64,000 bases of DNA from the NCBI GenBank assembly GCA_030528325.1, contig JAUMZD010000016.1, forward strand, positions 1-64,000, in the 5' to 3' direction. A program made the position numbers and the translations under genes. Each line of letters starts with the position of its first letter. Positions within the stretch are counted from its first letter, which is position 1. Of the stretch, positions 3,701 to 54,197 are shown in pieces. The DNA comes from Lautropia sp. (GTDB lineage Bacteria; Pseudomonadota; Gammaproteobacteria; Burkholderiales; Burkholderiaceae_E). The notes beneath the pieces were generated by a model. It did no database searches. It was not told where the DNA came from and saw only the letters and a list, made by a program, of their open reading frames with translations.

Positions 3701-4624
3701 ATGAAGGGGAATCCTCTTTTGTGTTACGCCGTTCTTGCCGGAGAGGTGTCGATTGTATGGGTGATGGCTGGCGCCATGATGTCGCTGGCGCATGCCACGG
3801 AGCATCCGATAAAGGACGTGCCTGACACGCTGCACACGTCGTCAGCCGAATCGAAGATTGCCGGACAGAATGGTATGGGAGAAAAACCGGAGACGGGATC
3901 CAGGCATGAAGATGTCGGCCTTCAGAAAGAGGCCCGCCAGAAAGCGGAGGGCCAGCGTGCGAGGGAAGGAGGGCTCACCGACAACGGGGAAGGGGCGAAC
4001 AGGAAGTCTGGCGACCAGGGCGCATTGCTGTTGACGCAGAGTGCCGCAGGGCAGGTGAAGGTGAAAAGCTGGAAGACCTTGCGCGATGATGGCATCGTCA
4101 AACAGGATTTGGACTATTCCTGCGGCGCGGCTTCGGCGGCGACTCTGCTAAACAGCTTCTATGGTCAGAACGTTTCGGAGAAGCAGTTTCTGAAGACCAT
4201 GGGGGAGGAGGACGGCATGGCCAGTTTTGAAGACATGGCGCGAGCGATGCCTGCGTTCGGTTTCAAGGCAAGGGGGTTTGCAGCCAGTTGGGATCAGTTG
4301 ATCAAGCTGAAGCTTCCGGTCATTGTCTATGTCAAGTATCGCAAAGACGATCACTTCAGTGTGTTGCGAGGCATCAGTGGCAATACGGTCTGGCTTGCCG
4401 ATCCCAGCCTGGGCAATCGAACCTTCAGCAAGTCGCAGTTTCTTCAGATGTGGCAGACGCGGGATGACAAGAAAGCCCCAGAGCTGGCGGGCAAATTTCT
4501 GGCTGTGTTGCCAGCAAAGGAGGATATCGACCGCATGGACGCTTATTTTTCAAAAGCTCCTCGTCGTCAAAGCGGTGTCGCCGTTGAGCAGCTCAGCTTT
4601 CGGGGGGCTGCAGGGATACTCTGA
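3701..4624 (+). CDS. Free-standing peptidase C39 (bacteriocin-processing-type papain-like Cys protease) with an N-terminal signal peptide or anchor; not fused to an ABC transporter
   Basis: VKQDLDYSCGAASAATLLNSF (catalytic Cys context QxDxxDCGxA), DHFSVLRG (His), ADPSLGN (Asp). The N-terminus MKGNPLLCYAVLAGEVSIVWVMAGAMMSLAHA is hydrophobic. Confidence 0.7.
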   Translation: MKGNPLLCYAVLAGEVSIVWVMAGAMMSLAHATEHPIKDVPDTLHTSSAESKIAGQNGMGEKPETGSRHEDVGLQKEARQKAEGQRAREGGLTDNGEGANRKSGDQGALLLTQSAAGQVKVKSWKTLRDDGIVKQDLDYSCGAASAATLLNSFYGQNVSEKQFLKTMGEEDGMASFEDMARAMPAFGFKARGFAASWDQLIKLKLPVIVYVKYRKDDHFSVLRGISGNTVWLADPSLGNRTFSKSQFLQMWQTRDDKKAPELAGKFLAVLPAKEDIDRMDAYFSKAPRRQSGVAVEQLSFRGAAGIL

Positions 4625-4807
4625 ACAAGTCCACACTGATGCCGCATCCCCGGCACGGGCGCATGCTTGCGTTGGCATTTGTCGGCAATAGCACCACTAT
4701 TGACGACAAATGCCGCTTTGTCCTGCATCCCGTATCGGGACGCGTCGCCTCACGGGACTTGTTCAGCGTATTCTTGGCGGGGAGTCATGTCTCACCTAAA
4801 AATCTGT

Positions 4808-5527
4808 TCAGGTGTCAGGTGATAAAGGCGTTGCCATGCCGGAGGCACGGCGAGGGTCTGAGACAAGGGCCCGCGTAATGCAATCGCTCAGTTCAGGATC
4901 CATCTGCATCCGTTCAAGGCACTGTTTCAGCCAGTTGAGGTCGCGGATCATGCCGCAGGCATCGTGATAGGCTCGGGCGACATGCTGGCCGTAGGCTGAT
5001 TCGGCTTTTTCCCATGCCTGCGAAGGAATCTCTCCCCAGTGGGCGATCATCATGGCCAGGTCGATGATGTCCCGGTTCAATGTGGATCGATCCTGACCGC
5101 GATCGGCATTGGCCAGCAGCTTTTCAGCGTACATGTCTGCCCTGCAGAGCACCGGCACGCTGAGAACCTCATCAACGCTGCCTCCGATTCTGATTCTCCC
5201 TTCGTTGACGATCTCAAGCTTGATCGGAACGCCATCGATATCGATGACGGTGCGGATGCCATAGCGATCGGCCCGGATCTCGCGTCGGTATGACAGCGGG
5301 CTTTTGAGCAGGCGCCCGAGGCTTTGCTGGGTGATGGTGTTTCTCAGCAATCGGTAGCCTTCGGTCGACGCACACAGAAAATCGATATCGCGTGATTCCC
5401 TGTACTCCGACAGGGCCATGACGATGGCGGTCCCGCCGCCAAAATAGCAGTCCGCTTCCTGAAGAAAGGCCGTGTCGAAGGCAGCCAGCACACGAGCAAT
5501 GCGTTGGTGATGGAGTCTTTCAAACAT
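4808..5527 (-). CDS. Nucleotidyltransferase of the AbiEii/DUF1814 family (type IV TA-like toxin)
   Basis: YFGGGTAIVMALSEYRESRDIDFL matches the Pol-beta-type hG[GS]...DhD signature. Its start overlaps the stop of the upstream small gene by 8 nt. Confidence 0.65.
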   Translation of the reverse strand: MFERLHHQRIARVLAAFDTAFLQEADCYFGGGTAIVMALSEYRESRDIDFLCASTEGYRLLRNTITQQSLGRLLKSPLSYRREIRADRYGIRTVIDIDGVPIKLEIVNEGRIRIGGSVDEVLSVPVLCRADMYAEKLLANADRGQDRSTLNRDIIDLAMMIAHWGEIPSQAWEKAESAYGQHVARAYHDACGMIRDLNWLKQCLERMQMDPELSDCITRALVSDPRRASGMATPLSPDT

Positions 5528-5759
5528 TCATCACCCCATGGCCATATTCCTGCGTCAGTCGCTCGATCAGTGCCTTTTCCCGTGCCTCCAGTTGCGCCTG
5601 ATCGACATGCCGCCAGTTGGCTTCATAGAGTGCAAAGGCTTCGGCTTCGTCGATCCATTCATCCGGATCCCGGTTCCAGGCCAACAGGCAAAGCTGGGGG
5701 TAATCGCTCAGGTGCAAGGACATGGGTCTGGGAGCCTGGTGCGGTATGTGGATTGTCAT
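5520..5759 (-). CDS. Small conserved protein (79 aa), putative partner or antitoxin of the NTase; three paralogous copies in this window
   Basis: MTIHIPHQAPRPMSLHLSDYPQLCLLAWNRDPDEWIDEAEAFALYEANWRHVD...; overlaps the NTase start. Confidence 0.5.
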   Translation of the reverse strand: MTIHIPHQAPRPMSLHLSDYPQLCLLAWNRDPDEWIDEAEAFALYEANWRHVDQAQLEAREKALIERLTQEYGHGVMNV

Positions 5760-6063: not shown

Positions 6064-6311
6064 GCCGATGGGGCCGGTGCCATGGGCAAGGCATCACGCT
6101 CAGGAATTTCCAGCTCGATACCGCCTACAGGCGCGACTCTTTTCCGGATGGCTTCAATCAACGTGGTACCGCTCTCAGATTCGCTGTTGTCGAGTGCTGC
6201 TTTCAGGATGGTTCGCGCTTCCTCTTCCATGGAGTGCCCGTGCAGGGCTGCCTGAAGCCGGAGACGGGTCTTTGTCTCATCTTCGAGGTTGCGGATGGTA
6301 ATGACTGCCAC
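6060..6311 (-). CDS. vapB: VapB/FitA-type antitoxin (plasmid-stability StbC-like)
   Basis: MAVITIRNLEDETKTRLRLQAALHGHSMEEEARTILKAAL...; 4-nt overlap with vapC. Confidence 0.6.
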   Translation of the reverse strand: MAVITIRNLEDETKTRLRLQAALHGHSMEEEARTILKAALDNSESESGTTLIEAIRKRVAPVGGIELEIPERDALPMAPAPSA

Positions 6312-6321
6312 AAGCTCACCT

Positions 6322-6567
6322 TCAATGTGCTGTCAATGACTGCATCGTAGGTACTGACGTCATTTGTGTCAATTGGCTGGTGACGGGCCGACGTGGAGGC
6401 CGCCAGTCGGGCAGAATCCCCTGTAGCTCTCCCTGATGTCCCGGATCGACATGTCGCCAGTTGGCTTCATAAAGTGCAAAGGCTTCGGCCTCGTCGATCC
6501 ATCCATCCGGATCCCGGTTCCAGGCCAGCAGGCAAAGCTGGGGATAATCGCTCAGGTGCAGTGGCAT
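6322..6567 (-). CDS. Third paralog of the small NTase-partner protein (N-terminal 45 aa conserved, C-terminus diverged)
   Basis: Internal Met at 6567: MPLHLSDYPQLCLLAWNRDPDGWIDEAEAFALYEANWRHVD.... The track ORF 6322..6897 is a read-through extension. Confidence 0.4.
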   Translation of the reverse strand: MPLHLSDYPQLCLLAWNRDPDGWIDEAEAFALYEANWRHVDPGHQGELQGILPDWRPPRRPVTSQLTQMTSVPTMQSLTAH

Positions 6568-6610: not shown

Positions 6611-8359
6611 TCACCCCTGCAGCGCCTGAATCTCCCGCCATCCCAGCCCGAACTTTCGTAGGTACTTGCGCAGGCGGTCGGTGTCGTTGACCGCGCTGCG
6701 CTGGGTGCGGGACTGGTCGAAGAGGGTTCGGCCAGCTTCGGCCAGGCTCCGGCTTTGCCGGCAGGTGGCGATGACGGCTTCCAGTTGCAGGCGGTCGAAG
6801 CGGTCGAGTCCCGCCAGTGTCCCGGCGGGCAGCAGCTGTTCCAGCAGCGCGGGGGCTGGCAGGTTGTCGGCTTTTGCGCTGGCGGGTTGTGCCTCACGCC
6901 GGGGGGAGGGGGTGAGCGGGGCCGTTTCTGTCATGTCCTGCCACAGCCATTGCAGCCGGGCGATCTCGGCTTCGACCAGATCCGTGGTGATGCGTCCGCC
7001 TTCGGCGAGCGTGGCCAATCGGGTGATACTGGCCGACAGGTCGCGGAAGTTGCCCCGCCAGGGGGCATCAGGGCTCTGGGCGAACTGCAGGTAACGGGTT
7101 TTGGCCTCACGATTGAAGTGAGCGGCCTTGCCGCCTTCGGTGGGCATTCGGGCCAGCAGGTGGTCGATGTTGGGCTCCAGATCTTCGGGGCGTTCGGCCA
7201 GCCCGGGCAGGTGCCAGCTCCAGAGATTGATGCGGGCGAAGAGATCTTCGCGGAAGCGCCCGGCGGCCACTTCATGGCGCAGGTCGCGGTTGGTGCCGGC
7301 CATCAGCTGGAAATCGCTGTGCACCTCATGATCACTGCCCATCGGCAGAAAGCGTTTTTCCTCGACGGCCTTCAGCAGCATGGCCTGCTCGTCCTGACCC
7401 AGTTCGGCGATCTCGTCCAGAAACAGCACGCCCTGATGAGCGCTGCGAAGCAGTCCGGCCCGTTCGCTGGCTGCACCGGTGAAGGCGCCTCGTTTGTGAC
7501 CGAACAGAGTGCTGCTGGCGGTGTCACCGTGCAGGGTGGCACAGTTCACCTCGATGAAGTCGCCCTGCACCTGATGGCGGGCCTTTTTCAGCTCGTACAG
7601 CCGCCGGGCCAGGTGGGATTTGCCGGCACCGGTGGGCCCGGTCAGCAGGATCGGGGCTTTGGAGCGCACGGCCACCTGCTCGATCTCGTCGATCAGCCGG
7701 TTGAAGCGCGGGTTTCGGGTCGGAATGCCGTTCTTCAGATAATCCTGCGCCTGCTGGCGGGCGTGCTCGAAGCGCTGGGCCAGCCCGTCGTATCGGGACA
7801 GGTCGAGGTCGATCAGCGTGTAGGTGCCGACAGAGGCTGCACCTTTGGCCCGGGGGCTGGCGCTGTTGTCGTGATGCCCGTCGTGCCGGACTGGCTCGCG
7901 CGGCCCCTGGGCCAAGGGCAGCGATGGTCGCTGGCGGGGCGGCGAGCTTTGCAGCAGCACGCCCGGGATGAAACGGGCCTCCACCATCAGGAACAGACAG
8001 ATCTGTGCCACATGGGTGCCGGTCGTGATGTGTACCCAGTAGTCTTCGCGCTCGGTATCGAAGTGTTGGCGCTTCGCCCAGTCGTAGAGGTTGGCGTATA
8101 CCTCGCCGAAGTCCCAGGGGTCGGCCAGCGGCATCGGAATCGGATTCACCTGCGTGTGGGGCGACACCTCTGCGATGTCGGCCACGACCGTCTCCAGCAG
8201 TGCCTGGTACTTCGGTGCGTGGAACAGTTCCAGGCGGTCGATCGGATGAGGCTGCTGGACCATCGATAGCGTGGGGCGCCATTTCTTCCAGCGCCCGGCG
8301 CGCAGGCCGCTATCGAGCTGGGTACCGAGATAGCCGATGATGACGGTGCGTTTGTTCAT
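6611..8359 (-). CDS. rtcR: RtcR, sigma-54-dependent transcriptional activator with an N-terminal CARF domain
   Basis: MNKRTVIIGYLGTQLD... (CARF-like N-terminus), Walker A LLTGPTGAGKSHLAR, the GAFTGA motif of sigma-54 activators (KRGAFTGAASER), and a C-terminal HTH. Start taken at the ATG at 8359. Confidence 0.8.
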   Translation of the reverse strand: MNKRTVIIGYLGTQLDSGLRAGRWKKWRPTLSMVQQPHPIDRLELFHAPKYQALLETVVADIAEVSPHTQVNPIPMPLADPWDFGEVYANLYDWAKRQHFDTEREDYWVHITTGTHVAQICLFLMVEARFIPGVLLQSSPPRQRPSLPLAQGPREPVRHDGHHDNSASPRAKGAASVGTYTLIDLDLSRYDGLAQRFEHARQQAQDYLKNGIPTRNPRFNRLIDEIEQVAVRSKAPILLTGPTGAGKSHLARRLYELKKARHQVQGDFIEVNCATLHGDTASSTLFGHKRGAFTGAASERAGLLRSAHQGVLFLDEIAELGQDEQAMLLKAVEEKRFLPMGSDHEVHSDFQLMAGTNRDLRHEVAAGRFREDLFARINLWSWHLPGLAERPEDLEPNIDHLLARMPTEGGKAAHFNREAKTRYLQFAQSPDAPWRGNFRDLSASITRLATLAEGGRITTDLVEAEIARLQWLWQDMTETAPLTPSPRREAQPASAKADNLPAPALLEQLLPAGTLAGLDRFDRLQLEAVIATCRQSRSLAEAGRTLFDQSRTQRSAVNDTDRLRKYLRKFGLGWREIQALQG

Positions 8360-8401
8360 GCTGGCGGGTGCTTGGGGTTCTGGTCTTGATCCAGTCAACC
8401 A

Positions 8402-8626
8402 CTACTGGAACAGGTGCGCCCGATACTGGCCGGGTGTGACCTCGTCAAAACCCAGCGATGGCAGATCCTGGAAAATCCGACGGTTGATCTCTTTCAGGTG
8501 CCAGGCGTCGAATTTCCCTTTGACAGGATTCAGTCTGAGTTCGACAAGACGAGCCCATGTATGTCTGGCTTCAAGTACCTGTCGCCGCCCTGATGTCAGG
8601 GCCGGGTTTGGGTGTCGATCTTTCAC
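8402..8626 (-). pseudogene. 5' fragment of a Fic/Doc-family toxin gene (stops before the HPFx[DE]GNGR core)
   Basis: ...AWHLKEINRRIFQDLPSLGFDEVTPGQYRAHLFQ* resembles the Fic helix preceding the active-site motif. The ORF ends 43 nt from the rtcR start. Confidence 0.4.
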
Positions 8627-8955
8627 TCGGCGCCTTTGACGAATTGTGCGAGATCTATCTCACCCCGAATGAAGCGCTGGGCGTGTTCTTCATCAGTGGG
8701 ACTCAGCTGGAAGCCTTCCAGTGCGACCGAAGCGCGAGCGTAGTTGATGGCCTCCTCGCGTTCCCTGCGGTTGTGATGCCCGATGGGGACGGAGATCGTC
8801 TGAGGTGTTTTTCTGGCGGCGGAACGCTGGACGTATTCACGCATGAAGTCGCGCAAAACCTGTGCGGCAGGGCGGTGCTCAAGCTCAGCAGCCTCGGCGA
8901 ACTGCGCGCGCAAGTCTGCTTCTACCCGGAATGTCATGGTGACAGCTTTGTTCAT
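8623..8955 (-). CDS. FicA/VbhA-type antitoxin with an N-terminal RHH-like segment
   Basis: MNKAVTMTFRVEADLRAQFAEAAELEHRPAAQVLRDFMREYV (RHH) and the inhibitory S/TxxxE(G/N) motif in ASVALEGFQLSPTDEEHAQRFIRGEIDL. The start could also be the upstream ATG at 9030. Confidence 0.5.
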   Translation of the reverse strand: MNKAVTMTFRVEADLRAQFAEAAELEHRPAAQVLRDFMREYVQRSAARKTPQTISVPIGHHNRREREEAINYARASVALEGFQLSPTDEEHAQRFIRGEIDLAQFVKGAE

Positions 8956-9074
8956 GGGGACTTGTCTGTGTGTGATGGATAGGCGAACGTAATTACATTG
9001 TAATGAAAGTGTCATGACACCAGAAGGCATCCAGCTTTGGACTCAGGCCCCTGCTGCCTTCTCTTCATCACTGG

Positions 9075-9398: not shown

Positions 9399-9414
9399 TG
9401 GCACGGGTCTTGCT
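9399..9414 (+). promoter_or_regulatory. Sigma-54 (-24/-12) promoter, perfect consensus, oriented toward the SPFH and rtcB genes
   Basis: TTGGCACG-ggtc-TTGCT matches TGGCACG-N4-TTGCW exactly. Confidence 0.55.
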
Positions 9415-9512
9415 TGGTAATGCTCATCAACCACGGCTGCCTGGCTGACAGCAACGCTTTCGGTTCGGCCACCAGAGCAGAGGGCTTGGGGTTCGGGTCA
9501 GACCTGCCCCAG

Positions 9513-9714
9513 CGGTGCCGGTGTCCATCGTCTTCATCGGTGAAGAACGATGTGGACGGTCGGCATGCCGCCAGGTAGTCGTGGGAGAGGTGGTGCGCAG
9601 GTTGGCGTGTGAGCGCATGGCCGGTTCAAGTCCGGCGGCACCACAGGTGGCTCTGCTCGGGTTGGAGCAACGTCCTGAAAAGACGTCTGGCAGGTTCGAT
9701 TCCTGTCTTTGTAC
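9513..9714 (+). ncRNA. Candidate Y-RNA-like / tRNA-like noncoding RNA (two tandem tRNA-mimic modules) downstream of the sigma-54 promoter
   Basis: Module 1 (9513..9643): a 7-bp acceptor-like stem cggtgcc/ggcacca, a long bulged helix (gtccatcgtcttc-atcggt-gaagaacgatgtggac) and a canonical T-arm gccgg-TTCAAGT-ccggc. Module 2 (9650..9706): D-arm GCTC-11nt-GAGC, an anticodon-like arm acgtc-CTGAAAA-gacgt, and T-arm gcagg-TTCGATT-cctgt, with no pairing acceptor stem. Confidence 0.3.
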
Positions 9715-10032
9715 GACGGGCCGAAAGGCTGGTCGCAATCAGAGCAAATCTGGCTGGACAGGCAGGTGTCCGGGCGCAGGCGATGTTCTCCGGCGGGATC
9801 GCTTCCCGAAGGAAATGCGCGTGCCGTCCCGGCCCTGCCACCGCATCAGCGGCCTTGCGTGTCATGAACGGGTCGTGGTGATGGGTCGGGTGAAGGTGGT
9901 GAGGTACTGCCGCCAGAGTCTGGCTGCACACCCTGATCCCCATGGCACCCGCCGCTGATGCGGGTCTGACCGGATTCGTCCGACCACAGCAGGAATTGTC
10001 CAATCAGATAACTCGGCAAATCAACAAATCAG

Positions 10033-10106
10033 CAGATCAACGGATCAACGGATCAGCGGATCAGTGAGCCAGCGAACCAATTGAGCAACGAATCCGCTGA
10101 TCAGGA
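10033..10106 (+). promoter_or_regulatory. Tandem GGATCA(A/G)C repeats plus an inverted repeat (ATCAGCGGAT...ATCCGCTGAT) immediately upstream of the SPFH gene
   Basis: cagATCAACGGATCAACGGATCAGCGGATCAGtgag ... gaATCCGCTGATCAgg, followed by the purine-rich RBS region ggaaaggaagagaaagaaaagga. Confidence 0.35.
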
Positions 10107-10133
10107 AAGGAAGAGAAAGAAAAGGATTCCATC

Positions 10134-11309
10134 ATGAAAACCTACGGCTGGAAAAGCTTTCAAGTCAGCAAGCATGAGCGCGCACTGCTGGTGCGCAATG
10201 GCGACGTGGAGCGTCTGCTGCCGGCTGGCCGGCATCGGGTGAAGGGCTGGGGGGATGTGCTGAGCGTCGCCCGCCTGTCGGGCTCTGAATCCGCGTTCGA
10301 TCATCCGCTGGCCGAACAGATTCTGGATGCCGGGCAGCGCGATGGCGCCGGCATGACGGATTGGTGGCAGCACCTGATCGCGGTGAGGCTGGCCGATGAC
10401 GAGGTGGGCCTGCTGATCGAGGACGATCTGCTGACGGCAGTCTTGCCGCCGGGCACGCGCCGGTTGTTCTGGAAAGCGCCGCGGCCGATTCGTGTCGAGA
10501 CCGTCTCGCTGTTGGCGGGTGTGCAGATGGCGCCGGCACTGGTGGCCAGGCTTCAACCGCTGATGGCCCGTGCCGGAACAGATGCCGTGGGCGGTGTCCT
10601 GCTGGTGCAGGTGCCGCAACACCATGCGGGTCTGCTGCGCGTCGATGGCGTATTGCAGCCGCTGCTGTCGACGGGCGTGCATGGATTCTGGCGCTTCGGC
10701 CCGGATGTCTCGATCGAGGTGGTGGATCTGCGCACGCAGACCACCGAGGTCGGCGGGCAGGAAATCCTGTCGCGGGACAAGGTGAGCCTGCGGCTGAACC
10801 TGCTCGCCGGCTGGCGCTATCAGGATGTGGCGCGGGCTTTTGCCCAATGGCCTCAGCCGGCGGATCAGGTGTATCGTGAGCTGCAATTCGCATTGCGTGC
10901 GGTGGTTGGCGCCCAGACGCTCGATGGGCTGCTGTCGGACAAGGCGCAGATGGATGCGGCGCTGATGGTCCAGGTGGGGCCGCGTCTGGCAGCACACGGT
11001 ATCGTTCTGGAGAGCGTCGGCGTGAAGGACATCATCCTGCCGGGCGAGATGCGTACGCTGCTGGCCAAGGTGGTCGAGGCCGAGAAAGCGGCGCAGGCCA
11101 ACCTGATCCGCCGACGGGAGGAAACCGCAGCCACGCGTTCACTCCTGAACACGGCCAAGGTGATGGAAGACAACCCGGTGGCGCTGCGGATGAAGGAACT
11201 GGAAACGCTGGAGCGGGTGGCCGAGCGCATCGACCGGATTTCGGTGGTCGGCGGGCTGGATCAGGTGCTGGATGGGCTGGTGAAGCTGCGTCCGGCGAAG
11301 AAGGGATGA
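10134..11309 (+). CDS. SPFH/band-7 (slipin-like) domain protein
   Basis: 391 aa with a central SPFH-like region and a C-terminal coiled-coil (EAEKAAQANLIRRREETAATR...ALRMKELETLERVAERIDRI). Confidence 0.65.
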   Translation: MKTYGWKSFQVSKHERALLVRNGDVERLLPAGRHRVKGWGDVLSVARLSGSESAFDHPLAEQILDAGQRDGAGMTDWWQHLIAVRLADDEVGLLIEDDLLTAVLPPGTRRLFWKAPRPIRVETVSLLAGVQMAPALVARLQPLMARAGTDAVGGVLLVQVPQHHAGLLRVDGVLQPLLSTGVHGFWRFGPDVSIEVVDLRTQTTEVGGQEILSRDKVSLRLNLLAGWRYQDVARAFAQWPQPADQVYRELQFALRAVVGAQTLDGLLSDKAQMDAALMVQVGPRLAAHGIVLESVGVKDIILPGEMRTLLAKVVEAEKAAQANLIRRREETAATRSLLNTAKVMEDNPVALRMKELETLERVAERIDRISVVGGLDQVLDGLVKLRPAKKG

Positions 11310-11466
11310 CACAGGCATGAATGAAGACCGGGGCCAGCGAGTGTGCTCCGCTTTGGCAGGTTGACAAAGCATGACGGTGAAAAGTATGAGCATGCGGGAA
11401 ATGGAAAACACTACGACAACGAAAAAAGCAACAGCAACAGCAATGGAGAGGGCAGTGGCGACGGCA

Positions 11467-12774
11467 ATGGAATCGGATACGGAAACAGCCACGACAACGA
11501 CGAGGACATCCGGGCAAGCATCGGGCCTGTCGACGGTATTTCCTCATGACGATTCGCTACCATATAATCAGATCACGAATGACGGAGCCGTCCCGGTGAA
11601 AATGTGGACGAAAGGCGTGCCGGTGGAGGATGAAGCCCGGCAGCAGCTGGAAAACGTCGCGCGGCTGCCGATCGTGTTCCGCCATGTGGCGGCCATGCCG
11701 GATGTGCATTACGGTATCGGGGCCACGGTGGGCTCCGTGATTCCCACCTTTCGGGCCATCATCCCGGCGGCCGTGGGGGTGGATATCGGTTGCGGGATGA
11801 TCGCCTGCAAGACGACGTTGCGCGCAGCCGATCTGCCTGACAATCTTGGCCCGTTGCGGGCTGCGATCGAGCAGGCCGTGCCGCATGGTATCTCGCCACG
11901 GCGTGCCGGGCGGGACAAGGGGTCGTGGGAAACGCCACCGCCAGAGACCGATGCGGCCTGGGCCGGGCTGGTGGATGAGTTCCGGCAGATCTGTGAAAAA
12001 TATCCCCGCCTGGAGAAGACCAACAACTACACGCAGCTGGGTACGCTGGGTACCGGCAACCATTTCATCGAGATCTGTCTGGATCAGGATGGGGTGGTCT
12101 GGATCATGCTGCACAGCGGTTCCCGCGGGGTGGGTAATGCCATCGGCACGCATTTCATCGAACTGGCGAAGCAGGATGCCGAGCAGCATCAGCGAAACCT
12201 GCCGGACAGGGATCTGGCCTATTTCGAGGAAGGCAGCCGTTATTTCGGGGATTATGTGAAGGCGGTGGGCTGGGCGCAGCGCTTTGCCCGGGCCAATCGG
12301 GAAGTGATGATGCAGCGGGTGATCGCTGCGATGAGAAGGATCATCACGAAGCCATTCCAGACACATCTGGAAGCGGTCAACTGTCATCACAACTACGTGC
12401 AGAAGGAACGGCATTTCGGTGAGGACGTGTTCGTGACCCGCAAGGGGGCCGTATCCGCGCGTGAAGGCGAGCTGGGTATCATCCCGGGCAGCATGGGGGC
12501 CCGCAGCTACATCGTGCGTGGGAAGGGCAATCCGGAGAGTTTCATGAGTTGCAGTCACGGTGCCGGGCGGCGGATGAGCCGCAACCAGGCGAAGAAGCGC
12601 TTCACGGTGGCCGACCAGATCCGGGCCACCGAAGGGGTGGAATGCCGCAAGGATGCCGAGGTGATCGATGAAATCCCGATGGCCTACAAGGACATCGACG
12701 CCGTGATGGCGGCACAGCGTGACCTCGTGGATGTGGTCTACACGCTGAAGCAGGTGGTGTGCGTGAAGGGATGA
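11467..12774 (+). CDS. rtcB: RtcB RNA ligase (3'-phosphate/5'-hydroxyl); true start uncertain
   Basis: AVPVKMWTKGVPVE, MPDVHYGIGATVGSVIPT, GTGNHFIEI, SMSCSHGAGRRMSR. The track ORF starts at 11371 with a low-complexity Thr/Ala-rich extension. The conserved RtcB sequence begins near 11560. Confidence 0.8.
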   Translation: MESDTETATTTTRTSGQASGLSTVFPHDDSLPYNQITNDGAVPVKMWTKGVPVEDEARQQLENVARLPIVFRHVAAMPDVHYGIGATVGSVIPTFRAIIPAAVGVDIGCGMIACKTTLRAADLPDNLGPLRAAIEQAVPHGISPRRAGRDKGSWETPPPETDAAWAGLVDEFRQICEKYPRLEKTNNYTQLGTLGTGNHFIEICLDQDGVVWIMLHSGSRGVGNAIGTHFIELAKQDAEQHQRNLPDRDLAYFEEGSRYFGDYVKAVGWAQRFARANREVMMQRVIAAMRRIITKPFQTHLEAVNCHHNYVQKERHFGEDVFVTRKGAVSAREGELGIIPGSMGARSYIVRGKGNPESFMSCSHGAGRRMSRNQAKKRFTVADQIRATEGVECRKDAEVIDEIPMAYKDIDAVMAAQRDLVDVVYTLKQVVCVKG

Positions 12775-12793
12775 CATCACGCTCAGGAGGATT

Positions 12794-12837
12794 GGGTGGC
12801 CGGTTTGCAGCCCGCGACTGTCCTGCCGCCCAAGCTC
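12794..12837 (+). repeat. Terminal-arm fragment of the MITE-like repeat family
   Basis: ggccggtttgcagcccgcgactgtcctgccgcccaagctc matches the arm of the element at 19014..19176. Confidence 0.5.
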
Positions 12838-12919
12838 TTCAGACGGCTCGGTGTTGATGGGGCGGCCGGGCCGTGCTACGATGCACATCGTTTGTAACAC
12901 GTCTTGCGAGGGCATCATC

Positions 12920-13207
12920 ATGGCCGACTCCACTTTTACCTTCCGGGTCGATGAAGCCTTGAAAGCGGAGTTTTCCACGGCCGCCAGGGCGCTTGACCGT
13001 AGCGGTGCGCAGCTGTTGCGTGACTTCATGCGGGAGTTCGTGCAGAAACAACAGGAGGCGGCTGCGCATGACGCCTGGTTCCGTCGTCAGGTTCAACGCG
13101 GTCTGGATTCGGCCGAGGCTGGCCGTCTGATTCCGGCGGCTGAGGTCGAGGCGAACTTTGCGGCCCGGCGGGCGGCCACGCGCCGTCGTCTTGAAGGTGT
13201 GGAGTGA
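12920..13207 (+). CDS. parD: ParD-like RHH antitoxin
   Basis: MADSTFTFRVDEALKAEFSTAARALDRSGAQLLRDFMREFV; 4-nt overlap with the downstream toxin gene. Confidence 0.6.
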   Translation: MADSTFTFRVDEALKAEFSTAARALDRSGAQLLRDFMREFVQKQQEAAAHDAWFRRQVQRGLDSAEAGRLIPAAEVEANFAARRAATRRRLEGVE

Positions 13208-13500
13208 TGCGTCTGTGCTGGACGCCTGAGGCCGTTCGAGACCGCGAGGACATCTATGCCCATGTCGAGGCAGACAATCCGATTGCAGCCCTGGCACTTG
13301 ATGAGCTGTTTTCGGAGAAGGCCCGGTATCTGACCGATCATCCCGGCCTGGGGCGGATGGGGCGGGTGGCCGGGACGCGGGAGCTGGTCGTTCATCGGAA
13401 CTACGTTCTGATCTATGACCTGGCAGGGGATCAGGTTCGCGTGTTGCGTGTGTTGCATGCGGCGCGTCAATGGCCGCCTGAGCATTCGTCGACGCCGTGA
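13204..13500 (+). CDS. parE: ParE/RelE-family toxin
   Basis: 98 aa: ...IYAHVEADNPIAALALDELFSEKARYLTDHPGLGR...RELVVHRNYVLIYDLAGDQVRVLRVLHAARQWP. Confidence 0.6.
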   Translation: MMRLCWTPEAVRDREDIYAHVEADNPIAALALDELFSEKARYLTDHPGLGRMGRVAGTRELVVHRNYVLIYDLAGDQVRVLRVLHAARQWPPEHSSTP

Positions 13501-13524
13501 GGCCGGGTGGAGAGGGCGGCTGGC

Positions 13525-13586
13525 CGTGATGGCCGCCCAGCGTGACCTCGTGGATGTGGTGTACACCCTGAAGCAGGTCGTGTGCA
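13525..13586 (+). repeat. Duplicated copy of the last ~62 nt of rtcB (original at 12701..12762)
   Basis: ccgtgatggc(c/g)gc(c/a)cagcgtgacctcgtggatgtggt(g/c)tacac(c/g)ctgaagcaggt(c/g)gtgtgc. The copy encodes AAQRDLVDVVYTLKQVVC. Confidence 0.7.
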
Positions 13587-13598
13587 TAACACGCTCTA
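13585..13598 (+). repeat. 14-bp direct repeat CATAACACGCTCTA (left copy) flanking the MoxR-vWA module
   Basis: Identical to 16666..16679. Confidence 0.6.
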
Positions 13599-13659
13599 AA
13601 GGGTGATTTACCCTGCAAGGGGTATTTCACCATTCAGCGAAAAGTTTTCCGGATGAACC

Positions 13660-14724
13660 ATGCAAGCCAGCATTTCCCTGTCTCCCTCCCAGCTTTCCGA
13701 GTTCCTGCTCAACGTTGCCACCGTGCGGCCGGTGTTCATCTGGGGGCCGCCGGGCATCGGCAAGTCGGCCCTGGTCACGCAGTTTGCCGAGAGTGTCGGT
13801 CTGCCGTGCGTCTCGTTGCTGGGCAGCCAGCTGGCGCCCGAAGACCTGATGGGCGTGCCGCAGATCCGTGATGGGGTGACGCGATTCTGCCCGCCGGCGA
13901 TGATCGCCCGTGAGGAGCCTTACTGCCTGTTTCTGGATGAGTTGAATGCCTGCTCGCAGGATGTACAGAAGGCCTTCTACAGCCTGATCCATGATCGCCG
14001 GGTGGGGGAATACACATTGCCCGAAGGCTCGATCGTGATCGGCGCCGGCAATCGGGCGCAGGATTCGGCCATCGTCAAGCCGATGTCGTCGGCGCTGATG
14101 AATCGCATGGTGCATGTTCATCTGCGGGTCTCGGCCAGCGAATGGCTGCAGTGGGCCACGTCGGCCGGCCTGCATCCACTGGTCATCGATTATCTGAGCC
14201 AGCGTCCCGATCATCTCTGGAGTCAGCCGCCCAGGCATGAAGAACCGTTCTCCACGCCACGTGCCTGGCACATGCTCAGTGATGCACTGCATGGGTTCGG
14301 GGAACAGCTGCCGCCCGTGATGATGGAGGCGCTGGCAGCAGGGTGTCTGACACCACAGCATGCTGCCCAGTTCCGGGCCTTTGGCAAGCTGGCCGGGGAT
14401 CGACACCGGCTCGATGCGATCATCAAGGGGGATGCCCGCTGGCCGCACGATCCGGCCGACCGCGACCTGCTGTATTTCCTGGTGCAGGCGTTCCGTGCCC
14501 GCCTGTTGAAGGTGCTGCCGGCCGAGAAGAATCTGGTCAGCGCCGAGGAGCAGGCTTTCGTTCACCGCAGCAAGGCCATGCTGAAAGAAATCGCGCAGAT
14601 CAGCCTGGAGATGGCGCAGATCGTGGTCGCGCAGGAGGCGGACGCGGCCTTGCCAGCCTGGTACATGGTGGAGGTCGTGCGTGACCTGCCCCGGCTGGTC
14701 GAGAAGAAAGCCGAGGCGAAGTGA
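13660..14724 (+). CDS. MoxR-family AAA+ ATPase (AAA_5 / CbbQ-NorQ-like)
   Basis: Walker A IWGPPGIGKSALV, Walker B CLFLDELN, and a sensor region. Translationally coupled (ATGA overlap) to the downstream vWA gene. Confidence 0.8.
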   Translation: MQASISLSPSQLSEFLLNVATVRPVFIWGPPGIGKSALVTQFAESVGLPCVSLLGSQLAPEDLMGVPQIRDGVTRFCPPAMIAREEPYCLFLDELNACSQDVQKAFYSLIHDRRVGEYTLPEGSIVIGAGNRAQDSAIVKPMSSALMNRMVHVHLRVSASEWLQWATSAGLHPLVIDYLSQRPDHLWSQPPRHEEPFSTPRAWHMLSDALHGFGEQLPPVMMEALAAGCLTPQHAAQFRAFGKLAGDRHRLDAIIKGDARWPHDPADRDLLYFLVQAFRARLLKVLPAEKNLVSAEEQAFVHRSKAMLKEIAQISLEMAQIVVAQEADAALPAWYMVEVVRDLPRLVEKKAEAK

Positions 14725-16595
14725 TGGGGCGAGCCGGTTCACGAGCCAGGGCGGCCACACCGGCCTCGCGGCATTACGAGGACGGGCTGCGTCTTTTGAG
14801 GACACATCCGGTTTTCGAGCCGCTGTATGAGCGCGTCCGCTGGGTGCGCAACACCTTCATCCATCGCAGCGCCCTCATCTGGCCGTCGGATGAATGGCCG
14901 GCCGATGCGTGGCTGTGGCTCGGCCGTGACGAGCATCTGTATGTTCACCCGAAGCGTCTGGCCGAGCCTGAGGTCTGGGCGCATGTGATGGCGCGTGGGC
15001 TGCTCTATCACGCGCTTGAACTGTGGCAGCCCGATCGCGGCAACTGGGAGGCCTGGAGTGCAGCCTGCGATGTGGTGACGGCCCGCTTCTTGCAGGGCAT
15101 CAAGTTCTACCGAAGCCCCGAGGGGATGACGCTGCCGGATGATCTGCCCGCCTGGGATGAGGCGCGCTGGTATCGGCAGTTCTGCGAGGATGGCGTGCCC
15201 GATTGGGCCGCAGCCCTGTCGCTGGCAGGCCGGACGAGGCCGACGATGCAGGCGCCGGGCGATTGGCCCGACAGGCGCGCCGATCCGTTTCGGGTCAGCT
15301 GGCCGGAGGCGTTTTCGGCGGGCATCGCCGAATCCGTCAGGCAGGCGGTGGAGGTCGTGGCCGGCCTGCGTTCTTCGTTAGGTAGCGAATTGATCGCTTC
15401 TTCGGGCCAGGGAGGGCGTGGCGAACTGCGAGCCCTCACCCGGCAGGCCAGGGACTGGTTCATCAGCAGTTTTCCGCTACTGGGCGCGATGGTCGCCTCT
15501 TTCGAGTTCGTCGAGGATGCCGGGTTGTGCCGGCGAGAAGATATCCTGGTGGCGGCGGTCGATGAAAGCCTGCGCACGATCTATCTGAATCCGGCCGTGG
15601 GGCTGGACGAGCAGGAAAGCCGTTTCGTCATTGCGCACGAAGTGCTGCATGTGGCACTCAGGCATCTGCCGCGCCGCCAGGGGCGTGACCCGTGGCTTTG
15701 GAACGTGGCCTGTGATTTCGTCATCAACGACTGGCTGATCCAGATGCAGGTCGGCACGCCGCCTGCCTTGGGGTTGTTGTTCGATGAGGGCTTGCGAGGC
15801 CTGTCGGCCGAAGAGATCTATGACCGGATCGCACGTGATCTGCGGCGCATGAGAAAACTGCGCACACTGGCCGGCGGGCAATGCGACATGCTGGAGCGCC
15901 GTCTTGATACCCGGCAGGTACCGTTCACCGATCTCGATGCCTTCTGCCGCGAGCAGCTTGGCAAGGGGTTGTTGCTGCATCAGCAGCAGGGGCGGGGTTA
16001 TCTGCCGGCCGGATTGATCGAGGAGATTAACGCGCTGCTGCAACCGCCCATCCCGTGGGAGGTGCAGCTGGCCCGATGGTTCGATCATCATTTTCCGCCG
16101 CTGGAAACCCGGCGCACCTATGCGCGATTGTCGCGGCGCCAGTCGGCCACACCCGACATTCCACGCCCCCATCTGGGGGTGGATGAAAGCCGGCGGGCGG
16201 GCCGAACCTTCGGCGTGGTGCTCGATTCTTCCGGCTCGATGTCCCGGCAGATGCTGGCACGCGCGCTGGGCGCCATCGCCAGCTATGCCGAGGCGAAGGA
16301 GGTCGCGGCGGTTCGAGTGGTGTTCTGCGATGCGCGACCCCATGATGCCGGTTATCTGGCGGCGCATGACATTGCCGGTCGGGTGCGGGTGCATGGGCGA
16401 GGTGGCACCGTGCTGCAACCGGGCATCGACCTGTTGCAGGATGCGGCGGATTTCCCGCCGGACGGGCCGATCCTGATCATCACCGATGGTCAGTGCGATG
16501 TGCTGAAGATCCGGCGCAGCCATGCTTTCCTGATGCCGCCGGGCGCAGGCTTGCCCTTCGTGCCACGGGGCGAGGTGTTCCGGATGACGGACTGA
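14721..16595 (+). CDS. vWA-domain protein with an N-terminal HExxH (DUF2201_N-like putative metallopeptidase) domain, partner of the MoxR ATPase
   Basis: FVIAHEVLHVALRHL (HExxH), a MIDAS-type vWA motif VVLDSSGSM, and ...ILIITDGQCD. Confidence 0.7.
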   Translation: MMGRAGSRARAATPASRHYEDGLRLLRTHPVFEPLYERVRWVRNTFIHRSALIWPSDEWPADAWLWLGRDEHLYVHPKRLAEPEVWAHVMARGLLYHALELWQPDRGNWEAWSAACDVVTARFLQGIKFYRSPEGMTLPDDLPAWDEARWYRQFCEDGVPDWAAALSLAGRTRPTMQAPGDWPDRRADPFRVSWPEAFSAGIAESVRQAVEVVAGLRSSLGSELIASSGQGGRGELRALTRQARDWFISSFPLLGAMVASFEFVEDAGLCRREDILVAAVDESLRTIYLNPAVGLDEQESRFVIAHEVLHVALRHLPRRQGRDPWLWNVACDFVINDWLIQMQVGTPPALGLLFDEGLRGLSAEEIYDRIARDLRRMRKLRTLAGGQCDMLERRLDTRQVPFTDLDAFCREQLGKGLLLHQQQGRGYLPAGLIEEINALLQPPIPWEVQLARWFDHHFPPLETRRTYARLSRRQSATPDIPRPHLGVDESRRAGRTFGVVLDSSGSMSRQMLARALGAIASYAEAKEVAAVRVVFCDARPHDAGYLAAHDIAGRVRVHGRGGTVLQPGIDLLQDAADFPPDGPILIITDGQCDVLKIRRSHAFLMPPGAGLPFVPRGEVFRMTD

Positions 16596-16665
16596 GCGGA
16601 TGGGATGGGGTCAGCCCGCAGGGACAGCCCCTCCGGACGTGCAGCTCCGCAGTGGCAAATAAGTT

Positions 16666-16679
16666 CATAACACGCTCTA
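16666..16679 (+). repeat. 14-bp direct repeat CATAACACGCTCTA (right copy)
   Basis: Identical to 13585..13598. Confidence 0.6.
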
Positions 16680-16774
16680 GAATCGGCGAATGATCCATGC
16701 ATCGGCCGATGTCGGCCCATTCGTCGATCCGGTTCGATGATTCCGATTTCCCGCATTCCAGGAGCTATCCATCC

Positions 16775-17836
16775 ATGACGCCACCCGACATCTCTGTCCG
16801 TTTTCCCTGCCTCTCTCTGACGGTGCTGGCGGCGGCGCTGGCAATGGGCGCCTGCACCACCACCCAGCAGGAGACCGATCTGTCTTCCAGCTCGGGCACG
16901 AAGGTGGCGCATCGCGCGCCGATCATCCAGAAAACCTCGATGCAGGATCAGGCTCCGGCTGAGGTCGCTGCGACTGGGACGGATGCGAGCCAGGCTGGTG
17001 CGAATCAGGCAGGTACGAATCAGGCGGAGCCTGCCAGGATCGTGCCATCCACTCAGGCTGTCGTGCCGGCCCGGATGAGTGCGGCCGCTCAGGCGCCGGC
17101 TGCCGCCAGTGGCGTCGCAGCGGGTACGGCACTGGCCGGCAAGGAGGTGTCCGCGGGCAAGGCGATGGATTCGGATAAGCAGATGGTTGCAGGCGGGCAA
17201 GCGACCACGCCAGCGCCGTTCCGCTTCTCGCGTGCCGAGATGGAAGACATTGCCAACCCAGAGAAGCTCTCGTGGCGCATTTTTTACGACAAGCCTTCCA
17301 GCGGGCCGGATGCCCGCTGGTTCGATGCGGTCAAGCGGGGGGACCTCGACACCGTGAAGCAGCTGCTGGCCGCAGGTCAGAACATCGAGGCGAAGGACAA
17401 TGCCTCGCTGGGGCAGACCGCGCTGGGTTGGGCGGCTTTCATCGGCTATGAAGACATCGTCGATCACCTGATCGCGCAAGGGGCCGATCTGAATGCGACC
17501 GACCGTGGCGATGTCTACAACGTGCTGAAATCGGCCGTGCTGGGCAAGAATGTCGACATCGTGAAAAAGATTCACGCGCTGCTGAAGGACCGCACCGATC
17601 TGAACGACCAGACGGTGGAAAGTGATGGTGAGACCCTGGTGATGGTGGCCGCCAGCAACAACCGGCTGGAGATCGTCAAGTACCTGATCTCGCAGGGTGC
17701 CGATCTGAACCTGGTGTCACAGCAGAAGAATCACAGTGCGCTGTCCTTCGCCTGTGCCCGCCATTACCCCGAGATGCAGCAACTGCTGATCTCTCACGGG
17801 GCCATCAACCACCGCACGGGCAAGCCGGGCTGCTGA
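16775..17836 (+). CDS. Ankyrin-repeat protein with a lipoprotein-type signal peptide
   Basis: AGGAG lies 10 nt upstream of the ATG at 16775. MTPPDISVRFPCLSLTVLAAALAMGAC, then ankyrin repeats (GQTALGWAAFIGYEDIVDHLIAQGADLNATD; NNRLEIVKYLISQGADLN). Confidence 0.6.
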   Translation: MTPPDISVRFPCLSLTVLAAALAMGACTTTQQETDLSSSSGTKVAHRAPIIQKTSMQDQAPAEVAATGTDASQAGANQAGTNQAEPARIVPSTQAVVPARMSAAAQAPAAASGVAAGTALAGKEVSAGKAMDSDKQMVAGGQATTPAPFRFSRAEMEDIANPEKLSWRIFYDKPSSGPDARWFDAVKRGDLDTVKQLLAAGQNIEAKDNASLGQTALGWAAFIGYEDIVDHLIAQGADLNATDRGDVYNVLKSAVLGKNVDIVKKIHALLKDRTDLNDQTVESDGETLVMVAASNNRLEIVKYLISQGADLNLVSQQKNHSALSFACARHYPEMQQLLISHGAINHRTGKPGC

Positions 17837-19013: not shown

Positions 19014-19268
19014 GGAGCTTGGGCGTCAGGAATCGCGAAGGCGAAAATCGGCCCCGCCGAGCACAGTTTGTGCCCGATTCGCCGCCCCATAGCCGGCGCT
19101 ATGGGGCAAGAAGCGGGTGCAAAATGGGCCGGCGCGGCCGGTTTGCAGCCCGCGACTTTCCTGCCGCCCAAGCTCCTGGGAGCCTGAGAACCGGGCACAA
19201 AACGTGATCGGCGGGACTGATTTTTCCGTCGCGATTTTTACCGCCTTTCTACCGCCCAAAGGCCTGGG
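19014..19268 (+). repeat. MITE-like element: full copy (19014..19176, imperfect terminal inverted repeats GGAGCTTGGGCG...CGCCCAAGCTCC, central hairpin ccccatagc-cggcg-ctatgggg) followed by a degenerate half copy (19177..19268)
   Basis: Homologous copies or fragments at 12794, 21093, 25845, 39610 and 41764. Confidence 0.6.
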
Positions 19269-25844: not shown

Positions 25845-25976
25845 TCGCGCCGGTGGCGCCGGCCCATTTTGCACCCGCTTCTTGCCCCATAGCACCCGCT
25901 ATGGGGCGGCGAATCGGGCACAAACTGTGCTCGGCGGGGCCGATTTTCGCCTTCGCGATTCCTACCGCCCAAGCTC
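25845..25976 (-). repeat. MITE-like element copy (reverse orientation, one terminal arm degraded)
   Basis: gcgccggcccattttgcacccgcttcttgccccatagcacccgctatggggcggcgaatcgggcacaaactgtgctcggcggggccgattttcgccttcgcgattcctaccgcccaagctcc. Confidence 0.55.
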
Positions 25977-26016
25977 CTAGGCAGGGGTGCGGGCCGTGAA
26001 GGATGGCGCTACAGGA

Positions 26017-39609: not shown

Positions 39610-39658
39610 GGCCGGCGGTGCCGGTTTTCGCCGTCGCGATTCCTACCGCCCAAGCTCC
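39610..39658 (+). repeat. MITE-like family fragment (one end)
   Basis: ggccggcggtgccggttttcgccgtcgcgattcctaccgcccaagctcc. Confidence 0.45.
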
Positions 39659-39677
39659 TGGGGCAAATGGACAGGGC

Positions 39678-54191: not shown

Positions 54192-54197
54192 GGCGCA

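Follow-up and report, generated by a model that had tools for sequence, protein, structure and literature searches.

Two short direct repeats around a MoxR and vWA-metallopeptidase gene pair in a Lautropia RtcB operon: probable scars of an IS5-family element in an older gene order

The rtcB-moxR locus and its paired repeats

The DNA analyzed here, referred to below as the window, comprises the first 64,000 nucleotides (64 kb) of contig JAUMZD010000016.1 from Lautropia sp. (assembly GCA_030528325.1). It carries what is predicted to be an RtcR/sigma-54-controlled operon with a tRNA-like leader and genes for a Band-7 protein, the RNA ligase RtcB, a MoxR-type AAA+ ATPase, a DUF2201-family protein in which a putative metallopeptidase is joined to a vWA domain (hereafter the vWA protein), and an ankyrin-repeat protein (Table 1). 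At issue are the MoxR-vWA gene pair and a 14-nt direct repeat, CATAACACGCTCTA, of which the window holds exactly two copies, at positions 13585-13598 and 16666-16679, both on the plus strand; no further copy was found in the window at up to 1 mismatch. An earlier analysis made from the sequence alone (the sequence-only reading) had located these copies just outside the moxR and DUF2201-like genes, as our coordinates confirm, and had taken them to delimit a 3.1-kb segment that arrived next to rtcB as a discrete cassette, a view that the related loci described below contradict.

Taken alone, the 14-mer pair is unremarkable against chance. The window contains 124 collapsed direct pairs of at least 14 bases, 14 of them within 3.5 kb, and in a second-order Markov simulation the expected number of 14-mer pairs between two intergenic segments was 0.11 per window, corresponding to a probability of ~0.1 for at least one such pair. 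The 14-mer is not enriched in the window, for which reason a REP-type genome repeat was rejected as its identity; the frequency check proposed in the sequence-only reading for the whole genome, applied here to the 64-kb window, finds two copies only, i.e., not a frequent motif.

Table 1. Features of the window and of the related loci (gene orders as read along each locus; ORF, open reading frame; IS, insertion sequence; x, intervening gene)
Feature	Sequence	Position	Strand	Basis or remarks
RtcR, sigma-54-dependent activator, divergent	Window	6611..8398	-	tblastn with L002 RtcR, 77% identity over 481 aa
Sigma-54 promoter (predicted) TGGCACGGGTCTTGCT	Window	9399..9414	+	Exact TGGCAY-N5-TTGCW match
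tRNA-like element in leader	Window	9641..9714	+	Rfam tRNA 27.4 bits (below the gathering score of 29); ARAGORN, tRNA-Phe
SPFH/Band-7 protein, first operon gene	Window	10134..11309	+	Pfam Band_7 78.2 bits
RtcB RNA ligase, 467 aa	Window	11371..12774	+	Pfam RtcB 438 bits, match from residue 92
Toxin-antitoxin module, RelBE	Window	12920-13500		
RelB-like antitoxin	Window	12920-13207	+	RelB match 28.1 bits, weak, below the cut-off of 50
RelE/StbE-family toxin	Window	13207-13500	+	TIGR02385 RelE_StbE 45.5 bits (cut-off 27.9); Pfam ParE_toxin 64.8 bits
Displaced rtcB 3' end (pseudo-tail) carrying the probable IS scar	Window	13523..13606	+	tblastn with RtcB matches 13502-13588
Left IS scar (probable)	Window	13579..13598	+	GTGCATAACACGCTC followed by TA; contains the 14-mer at 13585-13598; interrupts the rtcB tail remnant
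MoxR-type AAA+ ATPase, 354 aa	Window	13660..14724	+	Pfam AAA_5 51.5 bits (cut-off 22)
DUF2201-family (vWA) protein, 623 aa	Window	14724..16595	+	DUF2201_N 91.1 bits (cut-off 23.2); DUF2201 32.4 bits (cut-off 26.4)
Degenerate peptidase-domain copy	vWA protein	Residues ~24-180		Without HExxH
Active-looking Zn-peptidase domain	vWA protein	Residues ~242-476		HEVLH at 305-309, nt 15636-15650
vWA/MIDAS domain	vWA protein	Residues ~483-623		DSSGS at 501-505, nt 16224-16238
Right IS scar (probable)	Window	16660..16679	+	TAAGTTCATAACACGCTC followed by TA; same orientation as left; upstream of ankyrin gene
Ankyrin-repeat protein	Window	16775..17836 (start maybe 16697)	+	Pfam Ank_2 and Ank
REP-like repeat copies	Window	12798-12840, 19121-19180, 25953-25980, 39634-39662, 41808-41851		
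Toxin-antitoxin module	L018	6210-6911		86-aa ORF and PIN-domain protein
Toxin-antitoxin module	L006	3343-3989		MazE/PrlF-like antitoxin and PIN-domain protein
Lautropia locus	L001			vWA protein 88%; Band7-RtcB-MoxR-vWA-Ank-TonB receptor-NMO
Lautropia locus	L005			vWA protein 89%; Band7-RtcB-MoxR-vWA-NMO
Lautropia locus	L018			vWA protein 83%; Band7-RtcB-toxin-antitoxin module-MoxR-vWA-Ank ... NMO
Lautropia locus	L002			vWA protein 79%; RtcR (divergent), Band7-RtcB-MoxR-vWA-Ank-TonB receptor
Lautropia locus	L006			vWA protein 72%; Band7 (cut by contig end)-RtcB-~2.2 kb including toxin-antitoxin module-MoxR-vWA; contig ends after vWA
Comamonadaceae and other Burkholderiales loci	L009-L015 (complete in five)			Band7-RtcB-RlaP-MoxR-vWA-RtcA
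Pseudomonadota metagenome-assembled genome locus	L007			Ro60-RtcB-Fic-x-MoxR-vWA-RlaP-RtcA
Nitrosospira locus	L032			Ro60-x-RtcB-RtcA-RlaP-RlaP-Hen1-MoxR-vWA
Solibacteraceae locus	L079			MoxR-vWA-RtcB, distant RtcB subfamily
Paenibacillaceae loci	L054, L067, L076			Ro60 and RlaP upstream (L054, L067); convergent RtcB downstream (L054), with Band7 (L076)

Insertion sequence ends and the age of the gene pair

Metagenome contigs were scanned with the two window versions of the repeat merged into the pattern TKCATAACACGCTCTARARK, and at least 120 contigs matched. Among the matches listed, the DNA 5' of the motif falls into a few conserved classes and the DNA that follows ..CACGCTC-TA is unrelated between matches. 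One upstream class is the 3' end of an open reading frame (ORF) encoding a transposase C terminus that ends in ..GLHFLAFAILMLKRFVEL and a stop codon; a second is the start of an opposite-strand ORF, i.e., a transposase N terminus beginning with MARKPYPSDVTDDEW; the third is a recurrent block of ~70 nt. The same matches include 30 inverted end pairs, 27 of which span 813 to 932 bp, mostly ~857 to 866 bp. The consensus of 16 full-length elements reads GAGCGTGTTATG[AC]ACTTT ... AAAGT[TG]CATAACACGCTC, then TA, and several elements have perfect inverted ends with the flanks cTA/.../TAg, pointing to a CTAG-like target of which the central TA is duplicated. The single ORF of the element (~270 amino acids [aa]) combines DUF4096 with DDE_Tnp_1/DDE_Tnp_1_2, and plasmid-borne homologues in Xanthomonas, Burkholderia, and Ralstonia carry the annotation IS5-family transposase. 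By its sequence, the element is a small, widespread insertion sequence (IS) of ~860 bp from the IS5 family, and the 14-mer is the outer 12 nt of its right inverted repeat plus the duplicated TA. The window 14-mer is identical to this outer 12 nt plus TA of the small DUF4096/DDE_Tnp_1 group of the family (~0.85 to 0.9 kb; CTAG target, TA duplication). In contrast to such elements, the window sites keep only 15 to 20 nt each and have no transposase, opposite end, or complete element.

Compared with the inverted repeat consensus AAAGTKCATAACACGCTCTA, the right site matches at 19 of 20 positions and the left site at 17 of 20, and it is this agreement of both copies with an IS5-family terminus that makes the 14-mer pair nonrandom. 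At the right site the sequence reads ..TTCATAACACGCTC/TAGAATCGGCG in the window and ..GGCGGTTC/TAGAATCGGCGG in the related Lautropia contig L001, that is, ..CACGCTC/TA/GAATCGG as against an intact TTC-TA-GAATCGG, with homology resuming exactly at the TAG of the CTAG target. The left-site sequence is absent from the homologous place in three related contigs (L001, L002, and L005). Here too a TA follows the IS end, yet the rtcB tails of relatives have none at this point. The left join, ...GTCGT-GTGC-ATAACACGCTC-TA-AAGGGTGA, contains a GTGC that belongs to both the inverted repeat and the rtcB tail, as a microhomology-mediated deletion could have left it.

Since neither a transposase nor the opposite end was found, both sites are best read as scars rather than elements: the two 14-mers are probably solo right-end remnants of two decayed IS5-family copies in the same orientation. 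Two such copies would have inserted into a pre-existing operon, one of them into the last codons of an rtcB allele and the other into the CTAG that overlaps a TAGAAT box upstream of the ankyrin gene, and both would later have been almost wholly deleted, leaving 15 to 20 nt of end plus TA. The suggestion in the sequence-only reading that the repeat betrays mobile DNA was therefore well founded, its source being the ends of IS5-family elements. Attachment sites and target-site duplications were rejected as identities of the 14-mer, the copies being same-orientation solo IS ends.

A further short repeat, CATCACGCTCAGGA, occurs at 6092-6105 and at 12775-12788, the latter directly 3' of the rtcB stop codon. 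It resembles the IS end CAT(AA)CACGCTC, perhaps by coincidence, perhaps as a third scar in degenerate form.

Homologues of the vWA protein pointed to five related Lautropia contigs (L001, L002, L005, L006, and L018), in all of which the 14-mer is missing from the homologous places, even with 2 mismatches allowed. In L001 and L005 the rtcB stop is followed by the moxR start after 37 to 45 nt, and in L002 after 92 nt; the stretch that separates the left scar from moxR in the window is homologous to the rtcB-moxR spacer of L001; and amino acid identity to L001 varies little along the locus (Band-7, 87%; RtcB, 87%; MoxR, 93%; vWA protein, 88%). As relatives keep the gene order without the 14-mer, the MoxR-vWA pair predates the IS insertions. 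MoxR and the DUF2201 vWA-metallopeptidase are thus probably ancestral members of the operon, and the 14-mers would not mark their arrival.

The region 3' of the vWA gene varies among the relatives (L005, 5740-5870; L001, 8564-10696; L002, 11351-13381). A TonB-dependent receptor gene lies there in L001 and L002, and probably in L018 as judged from the vWA-NMO spacing, and is absent from the window.

These comparisons bear directly on the cassette reading, according to which the 3.1-kb MoxR-vWA block would be mobile, either site-specifically or as a composite transposon, and would have landed by rtcB with the 14-mers as its boundaries. The geometry of a composite transposon is indeed present, in that same-orientation IS ends flank exactly the two genes, and the two genes form a self-contained unit that occurs in very varied neighborhoods across bacteria, a few plasmids included. 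However, the pair occupies the same position, between rtcB and ank or NMO, in the five Lautropia loci devoid of 14-mers; the spacer and the identity profile run continuously into L001; the left flank of the left scar is an rtcB tail and not a duplicate of the right-hand target; and the order Band7-RtcB-...-MoxR-vWA reaches the Comamonadaceae. When relatives were compared for presence or absence of the block, as the sequence-only reading had proposed, the genes were present, the repeats were absent, and there was no empty site. The cassette reading is therefore largely refuted, and we regard it as very improbable. The integron/integrase type of cassette was rejected as well, as no recombinase gene was found between 9 and 19 kb of the window and relatives have the genes without the repeats. 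Reading the two copies as IS scars thus corrects a false call of a cassette and leaves the repeat an ordinary one.

Two other accounts of the repeat are hardly tenable. Coincidence, i.e., a 14-mer pair without common origin, draws on the frequency of such direct pairs in this GC-rich window given above, but does not explain why the copies agree at 17 and 19 of 20 positions with an inverted repeat consensus derived independently of them, why the right copy ends at a CTAG that is intact in L001, or why the motif is the terminus of elements found elsewhere. A shared operator or promoter that would place moxR-vWA and the ankyrin gene under one regulator, e.g., the newly arrived RelB antitoxin, could be argued from the position of each copy upstream of genes, from the overlap of the right copy with the conserved TAGAAT box, and from the resemblance of GTAACACGTCT upstream of relB to ATAACACGCTCT, but the 14-mer is not palindromic, no sigma-70-like promoter was found within 12700-17000, neither site is kept in relatives, an IS-end origin fully explains the sequence, and the relB resemblance, which is the sole support on which a RelB operator was considered and rejected, amounts to a 7-mer and a gapped TCT.

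The rtcB-moxR junction and the surrounding operon

The sequence-only reading had noted that the left copy is fused to a duplicated rtcB tail, an observation that held: positions 13523-13585 and 12700-12762 align over 63 nt at 92% identity. The 5 differences are all synonymous third positions, arguing that the tail remnant stems from a different, once-functional rtcB allele and not from a decaying local copy. Logan contig L085 (SRR24915846, an independent assembly, 960 nt) is 100% identical to window positions 12805-13764, and the junction of RelBE, rtcB tail, 14-mer, and MoxR is therefore not an artifact of the metagenome-assembled genome. Between rtcB and moxR lies a 0.8-kb insertion (~12763-13522) composed of a REP-like repeat, a RelB-like antitoxin gene, and a RelE toxin gene, the antitoxin stop and toxin start codons overlapping; the RelBE module is absent from L001, L002, and L005. 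Judged from these comparisons, the real lineage-specific insertion at the rtcB-moxR junction is the RelBE module, to the left of the left 14-mer, and it appears to have brought along another rtcB 3' end, derived from a different allele, that displaced the old one.

A 12-mer, TCGACGCCGTGA, is common to the relE 3' end (13489-13500) and to rtcB (12694-12705), where the tail duplication begins. Candidate histories of the RelBE insertion and tail duplication are homology-facilitated illegitimate recombination and the remnant of an island. The REP-like repeat in the insertion belongs to a separate, dispersed family of ~45 nt (GGCCGGCGNGGCCGGTTTGCAGCCCGCGACTTTCCTGCCGCCCAAGCTC) with 5 copies in the window, unrelated to the 14-mer; its copy at 12798 follows directly on the rtcB stop codon, and contig L085 breaks inside that copy.

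Three different toxin-antitoxin modules occupy the same rtcB-moxR junction in three Lautropia lineages, namely, those of the window, L018, and L006. The toxins of all three belong to RNase-type families and sit next to an RNA ligase gene. Such modules could point to an insertion hotspot or to a functional pairing.

The divergent rtcR gene was located with the L002 homologue, which carries Pfam RtcR and Sigma54_activat. RtcR regulates rtcBA in Escherichia coli and Salmonella. The predicted promoter is the only such sigma-54 match in the window and is found at the same place in L001, L002, and L018. It is followed by a leader of ~700 nt (9399-10130, from the promoter to the Band-7 gene) that is conserved among Lautropia loci. 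The tRNA-like element within this leader is kept in L001, L002, and L018, with the anticodon-arm and T-arm helices retained and 5 pairs changed on both sides; its homologues reach 31.1 bits (L018) and 35.9 bits (L010) on the Rfam tRNA model. The Band-7 gene also precedes rtcB in L001, L002, L005, L018, and Comamonadaceae loci, and a Band-7 gene within the rtc locus has been reported for Pseudomonas aeruginosa (PMC13086221). The concept of a tRNA associated with band-7 (b7a-tRNA) in RtcB systems is credited to Burroughs and Aravind (2016) in a passage of 10.1101/312249, and the leader element, as far as its predicted fold and position go, fits this predicted RNA. Thus, the window shares with Rtc operons and Band-7-b7a-tRNA-RtcB systems the divergent RtcR, the sigma-54 promoter, and a tRNA-like RNA upstream of Band-7, followed by RtcB. 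It differs in having MoxR, the vWA-peptidase, and the ankyrin protein instead of RtcA, RlaP, Hen1, or Ro60, none of which gave a match anywhere in the 64-kb window. The ankyrin gene appears to be a Lautropia-specific neighbor: it is present in L001, L002, and L018 and deleted in L005 save for a 3' remnant.

Just before the tRNA-like element, at 9620-9644, there is a second T-arm plus CCA-like stretch (GGCCGGTTCAAGTCCGGCGGCACCA), and at the same leader place L010 has a match to the YrlA model that is below threshold; the leader may specify a composite tRNA-like or Y-RNA-like RNA. RtcB itself has an N-terminal extension of ~91 residues (window 11371-11643), and long forms also occur in L001 (454 aa) and L002 (462 aa). 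An ORF on the minus strand (8623-9030), situated between rtcR and the operon promoter, encodes a VbhA antitoxin domain, and L007 has a Fic-domain protein between RtcB and MoxR (4247-5695); Fic/VbhA components may be recurrent near RtcB-MoxR-vWA operons.

Elsewhere in the window, a sequence of ~100 to 240 nt is present three times (402-640, 5467-5705, and 6455-6545; spacings of 5,065 and 844 nt) close to small ORFs that lie on the minus strand upstream of RtcR, and may correspond to duplicated small addiction-type genes. Large repeats spaced ~6.0 to 6.2 kb and 12.2 kb apart, including a 536-nt identical stretch (42158 and 54352), extend over ~42100-60300 and suggest three tandem paralogous large genes.

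The MoxR-vWA pair and RNA repair

The domain assignments of the sequence-only reading (AAA_5, DUF2201_N with HExxH, and a vWA-like domain) were all confirmed, as was the coupling of the two genes, the moxR stop overlapping the start of the vWA gene as TGATG. The downstream ORF opens at 14721, and the real start is the ATG at 14724 according to a database protein (P0001; 100% identical, 623 aa, from a "Lautropia sp." metagenome-assembled genome). In MoxR, the Walker A (GPPGIGKS, residues 29-36) and Walker B (LFLDE, 90-94) motifs are intact, and, of the proteins with solved structures, the midasin AAA domain (1.4e-11) and NorQ match it best. Its sequence thus places it in the AAA_5 (midasin/NorQ-like) subfamily, with a predicted remodeling activity.

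In the partner protein, residues H305, E306, H309 (and H314), D501, S503, S505, T562, and D588 are invariant in 67 sequences, and the central domain is a putative, active-looking Zn-peptidase, catalytically competent by its motifs. The N-terminal ~160 residues, which have no Pfam assignment, are a diverged duplicate of the peptidase domain (hhalign probability 98%, E 1e-13); in the family consensus this duplicate has no catalytic Glu, and in the window protein the whole motif is gone. The AF2 (AlphaFold2) model of the 623-aa protein has a pLDDT of 86.6, and a vWA fold was confirmed for the C-terminal domain, with structural similarity to the Rea1-MIDAS domain and NorD.

That an added HExxH makes this a protease-coupled variant was correct as to the motif and not as to its novelty, as HExxH defines Pfam DUF2201_N/DUF2201 and is known in jumbo phages. 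The MoxR plus metallopeptidase-vWA pair has been described from jumbo phages, with a proposed role in virion assembly (Iyer et al. 2021, PMC7824862), and the domain fusion itself is therefore already known. DUF2201_N/DUF2201 proteins (COG3864, "predicted metal-dependent peptidase") and their MoxR partners show the same arrangement of an overlapping AAA+ gene upstream of an HExxH-vWA fusion gene. By comparison with the COG3864 and jumbo phage pairs, the subfamily of the window (~600 to 625 aa) has the extra N-terminal peptidase copy, and its context is RNA repair, not virion assembly; the phage homologues align to residues 241-518 only, at ~30% identity. The PADLOC and NCBIfam libraries contain no model for either MoxR or the vWA protein.

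When one genome per species was scanned for the vWA protein, 80 loci from many phyla were obtained, which together with 4 collected before make 84, or 85 with the window. In 82 of the 85, the window among them, the gene immediately upstream of the vWA gene encodes MoxR. ORF clustering of the 85 loci and Pfam scans of the nearest neighbors revealed no universal third partner gene. Of the 84 loci other than the window, 19 have RtcB, RtcA, RlaP, Hen1, Ro60, or Band7 no more than 8 kb away from the pair, in several arrangements (Table 1), and two distant RtcB subfamilies are linked to it (30 to 33% and 60 to 90% identity to the window RtcB). The juxtaposition to an RNA-repair operon, left unexplained by the sequence-only reading, is thus part of a recurrent and conserved association. 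The placement of the pair between bona fide repair genes and its link to two distant RtcB subfamilies argue for a functional connection. We found no literature link between the MoxR/DUF2201 pair and RtcB in a search that did not extend to the 2016 survey of Burroughs and Aravind.

The most likely role of the pair, by analogy, would be the removal of proteins from damaged RNA-protein complexes by a midasin-like ATPase working with a MIDAS adaptor-protease, a proposal made because of the established behavior of the AAA_5/vWA pairs NorQD, CbbQO, and midasin. As in NorQ-NorD and midasin, the vWA protein would dock onto a ring formed by the AAA_5 ATPase; the MIDAS site would capture an acidic residue of the target protein; and the tandem pseudo-peptidase/peptidase module would cleave the target while the ATPase pulls. 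In operons with Rtc, Ro60, RlaP, and Hen1 genes, the pair would probably act on proteins bound to damaged RNA or ribosomes, or on RNA-damaging toxins, and their removal would give RtcB access to broken RNA ends.

The parallels are of two kinds. With NorQ-NorD, CbbQ-CbbO, and midasin (Rea1/MDN1), the window pair shares the AAA_5 subfamily and a vWA domain with a complete MIDAS that resembles Rea1-MIDAS and NorD; midasin offers a functional parallel, as it remodels ribonucleoprotein particles (pre-60S). In contrast, the targets of these systems (NorB, Rubisco, and Rsa4/Ytm1) have no shown counterpart here, and to our knowledge none of the adaptors NorD, CbbO, and midasin has a peptidase domain; we note a likeness only and claim no membership. 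Cdc48/p97 with Wss1/SPRTN couples an AAA+ unfoldase to a small HExxH metalloprotease in DNA-protein crosslink repair. It serves as an analogy for the mechanism, with no homology demonstrated, and the nucleic acid here would be RNA.

Overall, we assign a probability of about 0.7 to the combined reading of IS scars in an ancestral operon whose MoxR-vWA pair has the function proposed above. Several observations count against it. The IS history rests on 17 to 20 nt per site; no IS5-family transposase match was obtained by tblastn either in the window, where the best E was 0.53, or in the Lautropia loci, no inverted partner end was found near the scars at up to 3 mismatches, and no intact copy of the element has been shown in a Lautropia genome. 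The original TA target of the left insertion is inferred from a hypothetical rtcB allele. Fold searches matched the vWA domain only, with none for the peptidase domain, for which the assignment as a protease is drawn from membership in the Pfam family, from the presence of HExxH, and from a weak resemblance to Peptidase_M78 (E, 0.0034) and selecase MJ1213 (E, 0.25). Finally, about three quarters of the loci (~65 of 85) have no RNA-repair gene within 8 kb, and their neighbors are heterogeneous; the pair is therefore seen as a portable unit that is recruited into repair operons and not restricted to them.

This last point gives most room to an alternative in which the pair is a general-purpose chaperone-protease or conflict module whose presence in rtc operons is incidental hitch-hiking, unrelated to RNA repair. 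Apart from those mutually unrelated neighborhoods, it can appeal to the single-peptidase relatives in jumbo phages for which virion assembly was proposed (PMC7824862), the phage matches being confined to residues 241-518. We nonetheless consider hitch-hiking unlikely. The pair sits inside operons, among the repair genes themselves (RlaP/MoxR-vWA/RtcA and Hen1/MoxR-vWA); it is associated with two distant RtcB subfamilies and with Ro60, RlaP, RtcA, Hen1, and Band7 in differing arrangements and phyla; and the association is far above the ~0.2% expected, by a rough estimate, for a single-copy gene in a random 16-kb stretch.

Returning to the link with RNA repair, a more specific and quite doubtful extension is that the pair forms a dedicated protein-clearing arm of bacterial RNA repair, which would free damaged tRNA, rRNA, or ribosomes from proteins, by stripping or degradation, and so let RtcB reseal the RNA. 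Candidate targets would be ribotoxins, stalled factors, and even RNA-protein crosslinks. If this were true, the pair would do for RNA what Cdc48-Wss1/SPRTN does in DNA-protein crosslink repair, and the repeated insertion of RNase-type toxin-antitoxin modules at the rtcB-moxR junction would reflect a functional pairing of damage and repair. In any case, the three insertions at one junction constitute a small natural experiment on RNA-cleaving toxins versus RNA repair. The lasting value of the locus lies in a widespread, conserved AAA+/vWA-metalloprotease pair that recurs in operons with RtcB, RtcA, RlaP, Hen1, Ro60, and Band-7. Bacterial RNA-repair ligases have to gain access to broken RNA that lies within ribonucleoprotein complexes, and for the missing protein-handling step this pair is a concrete candidate.

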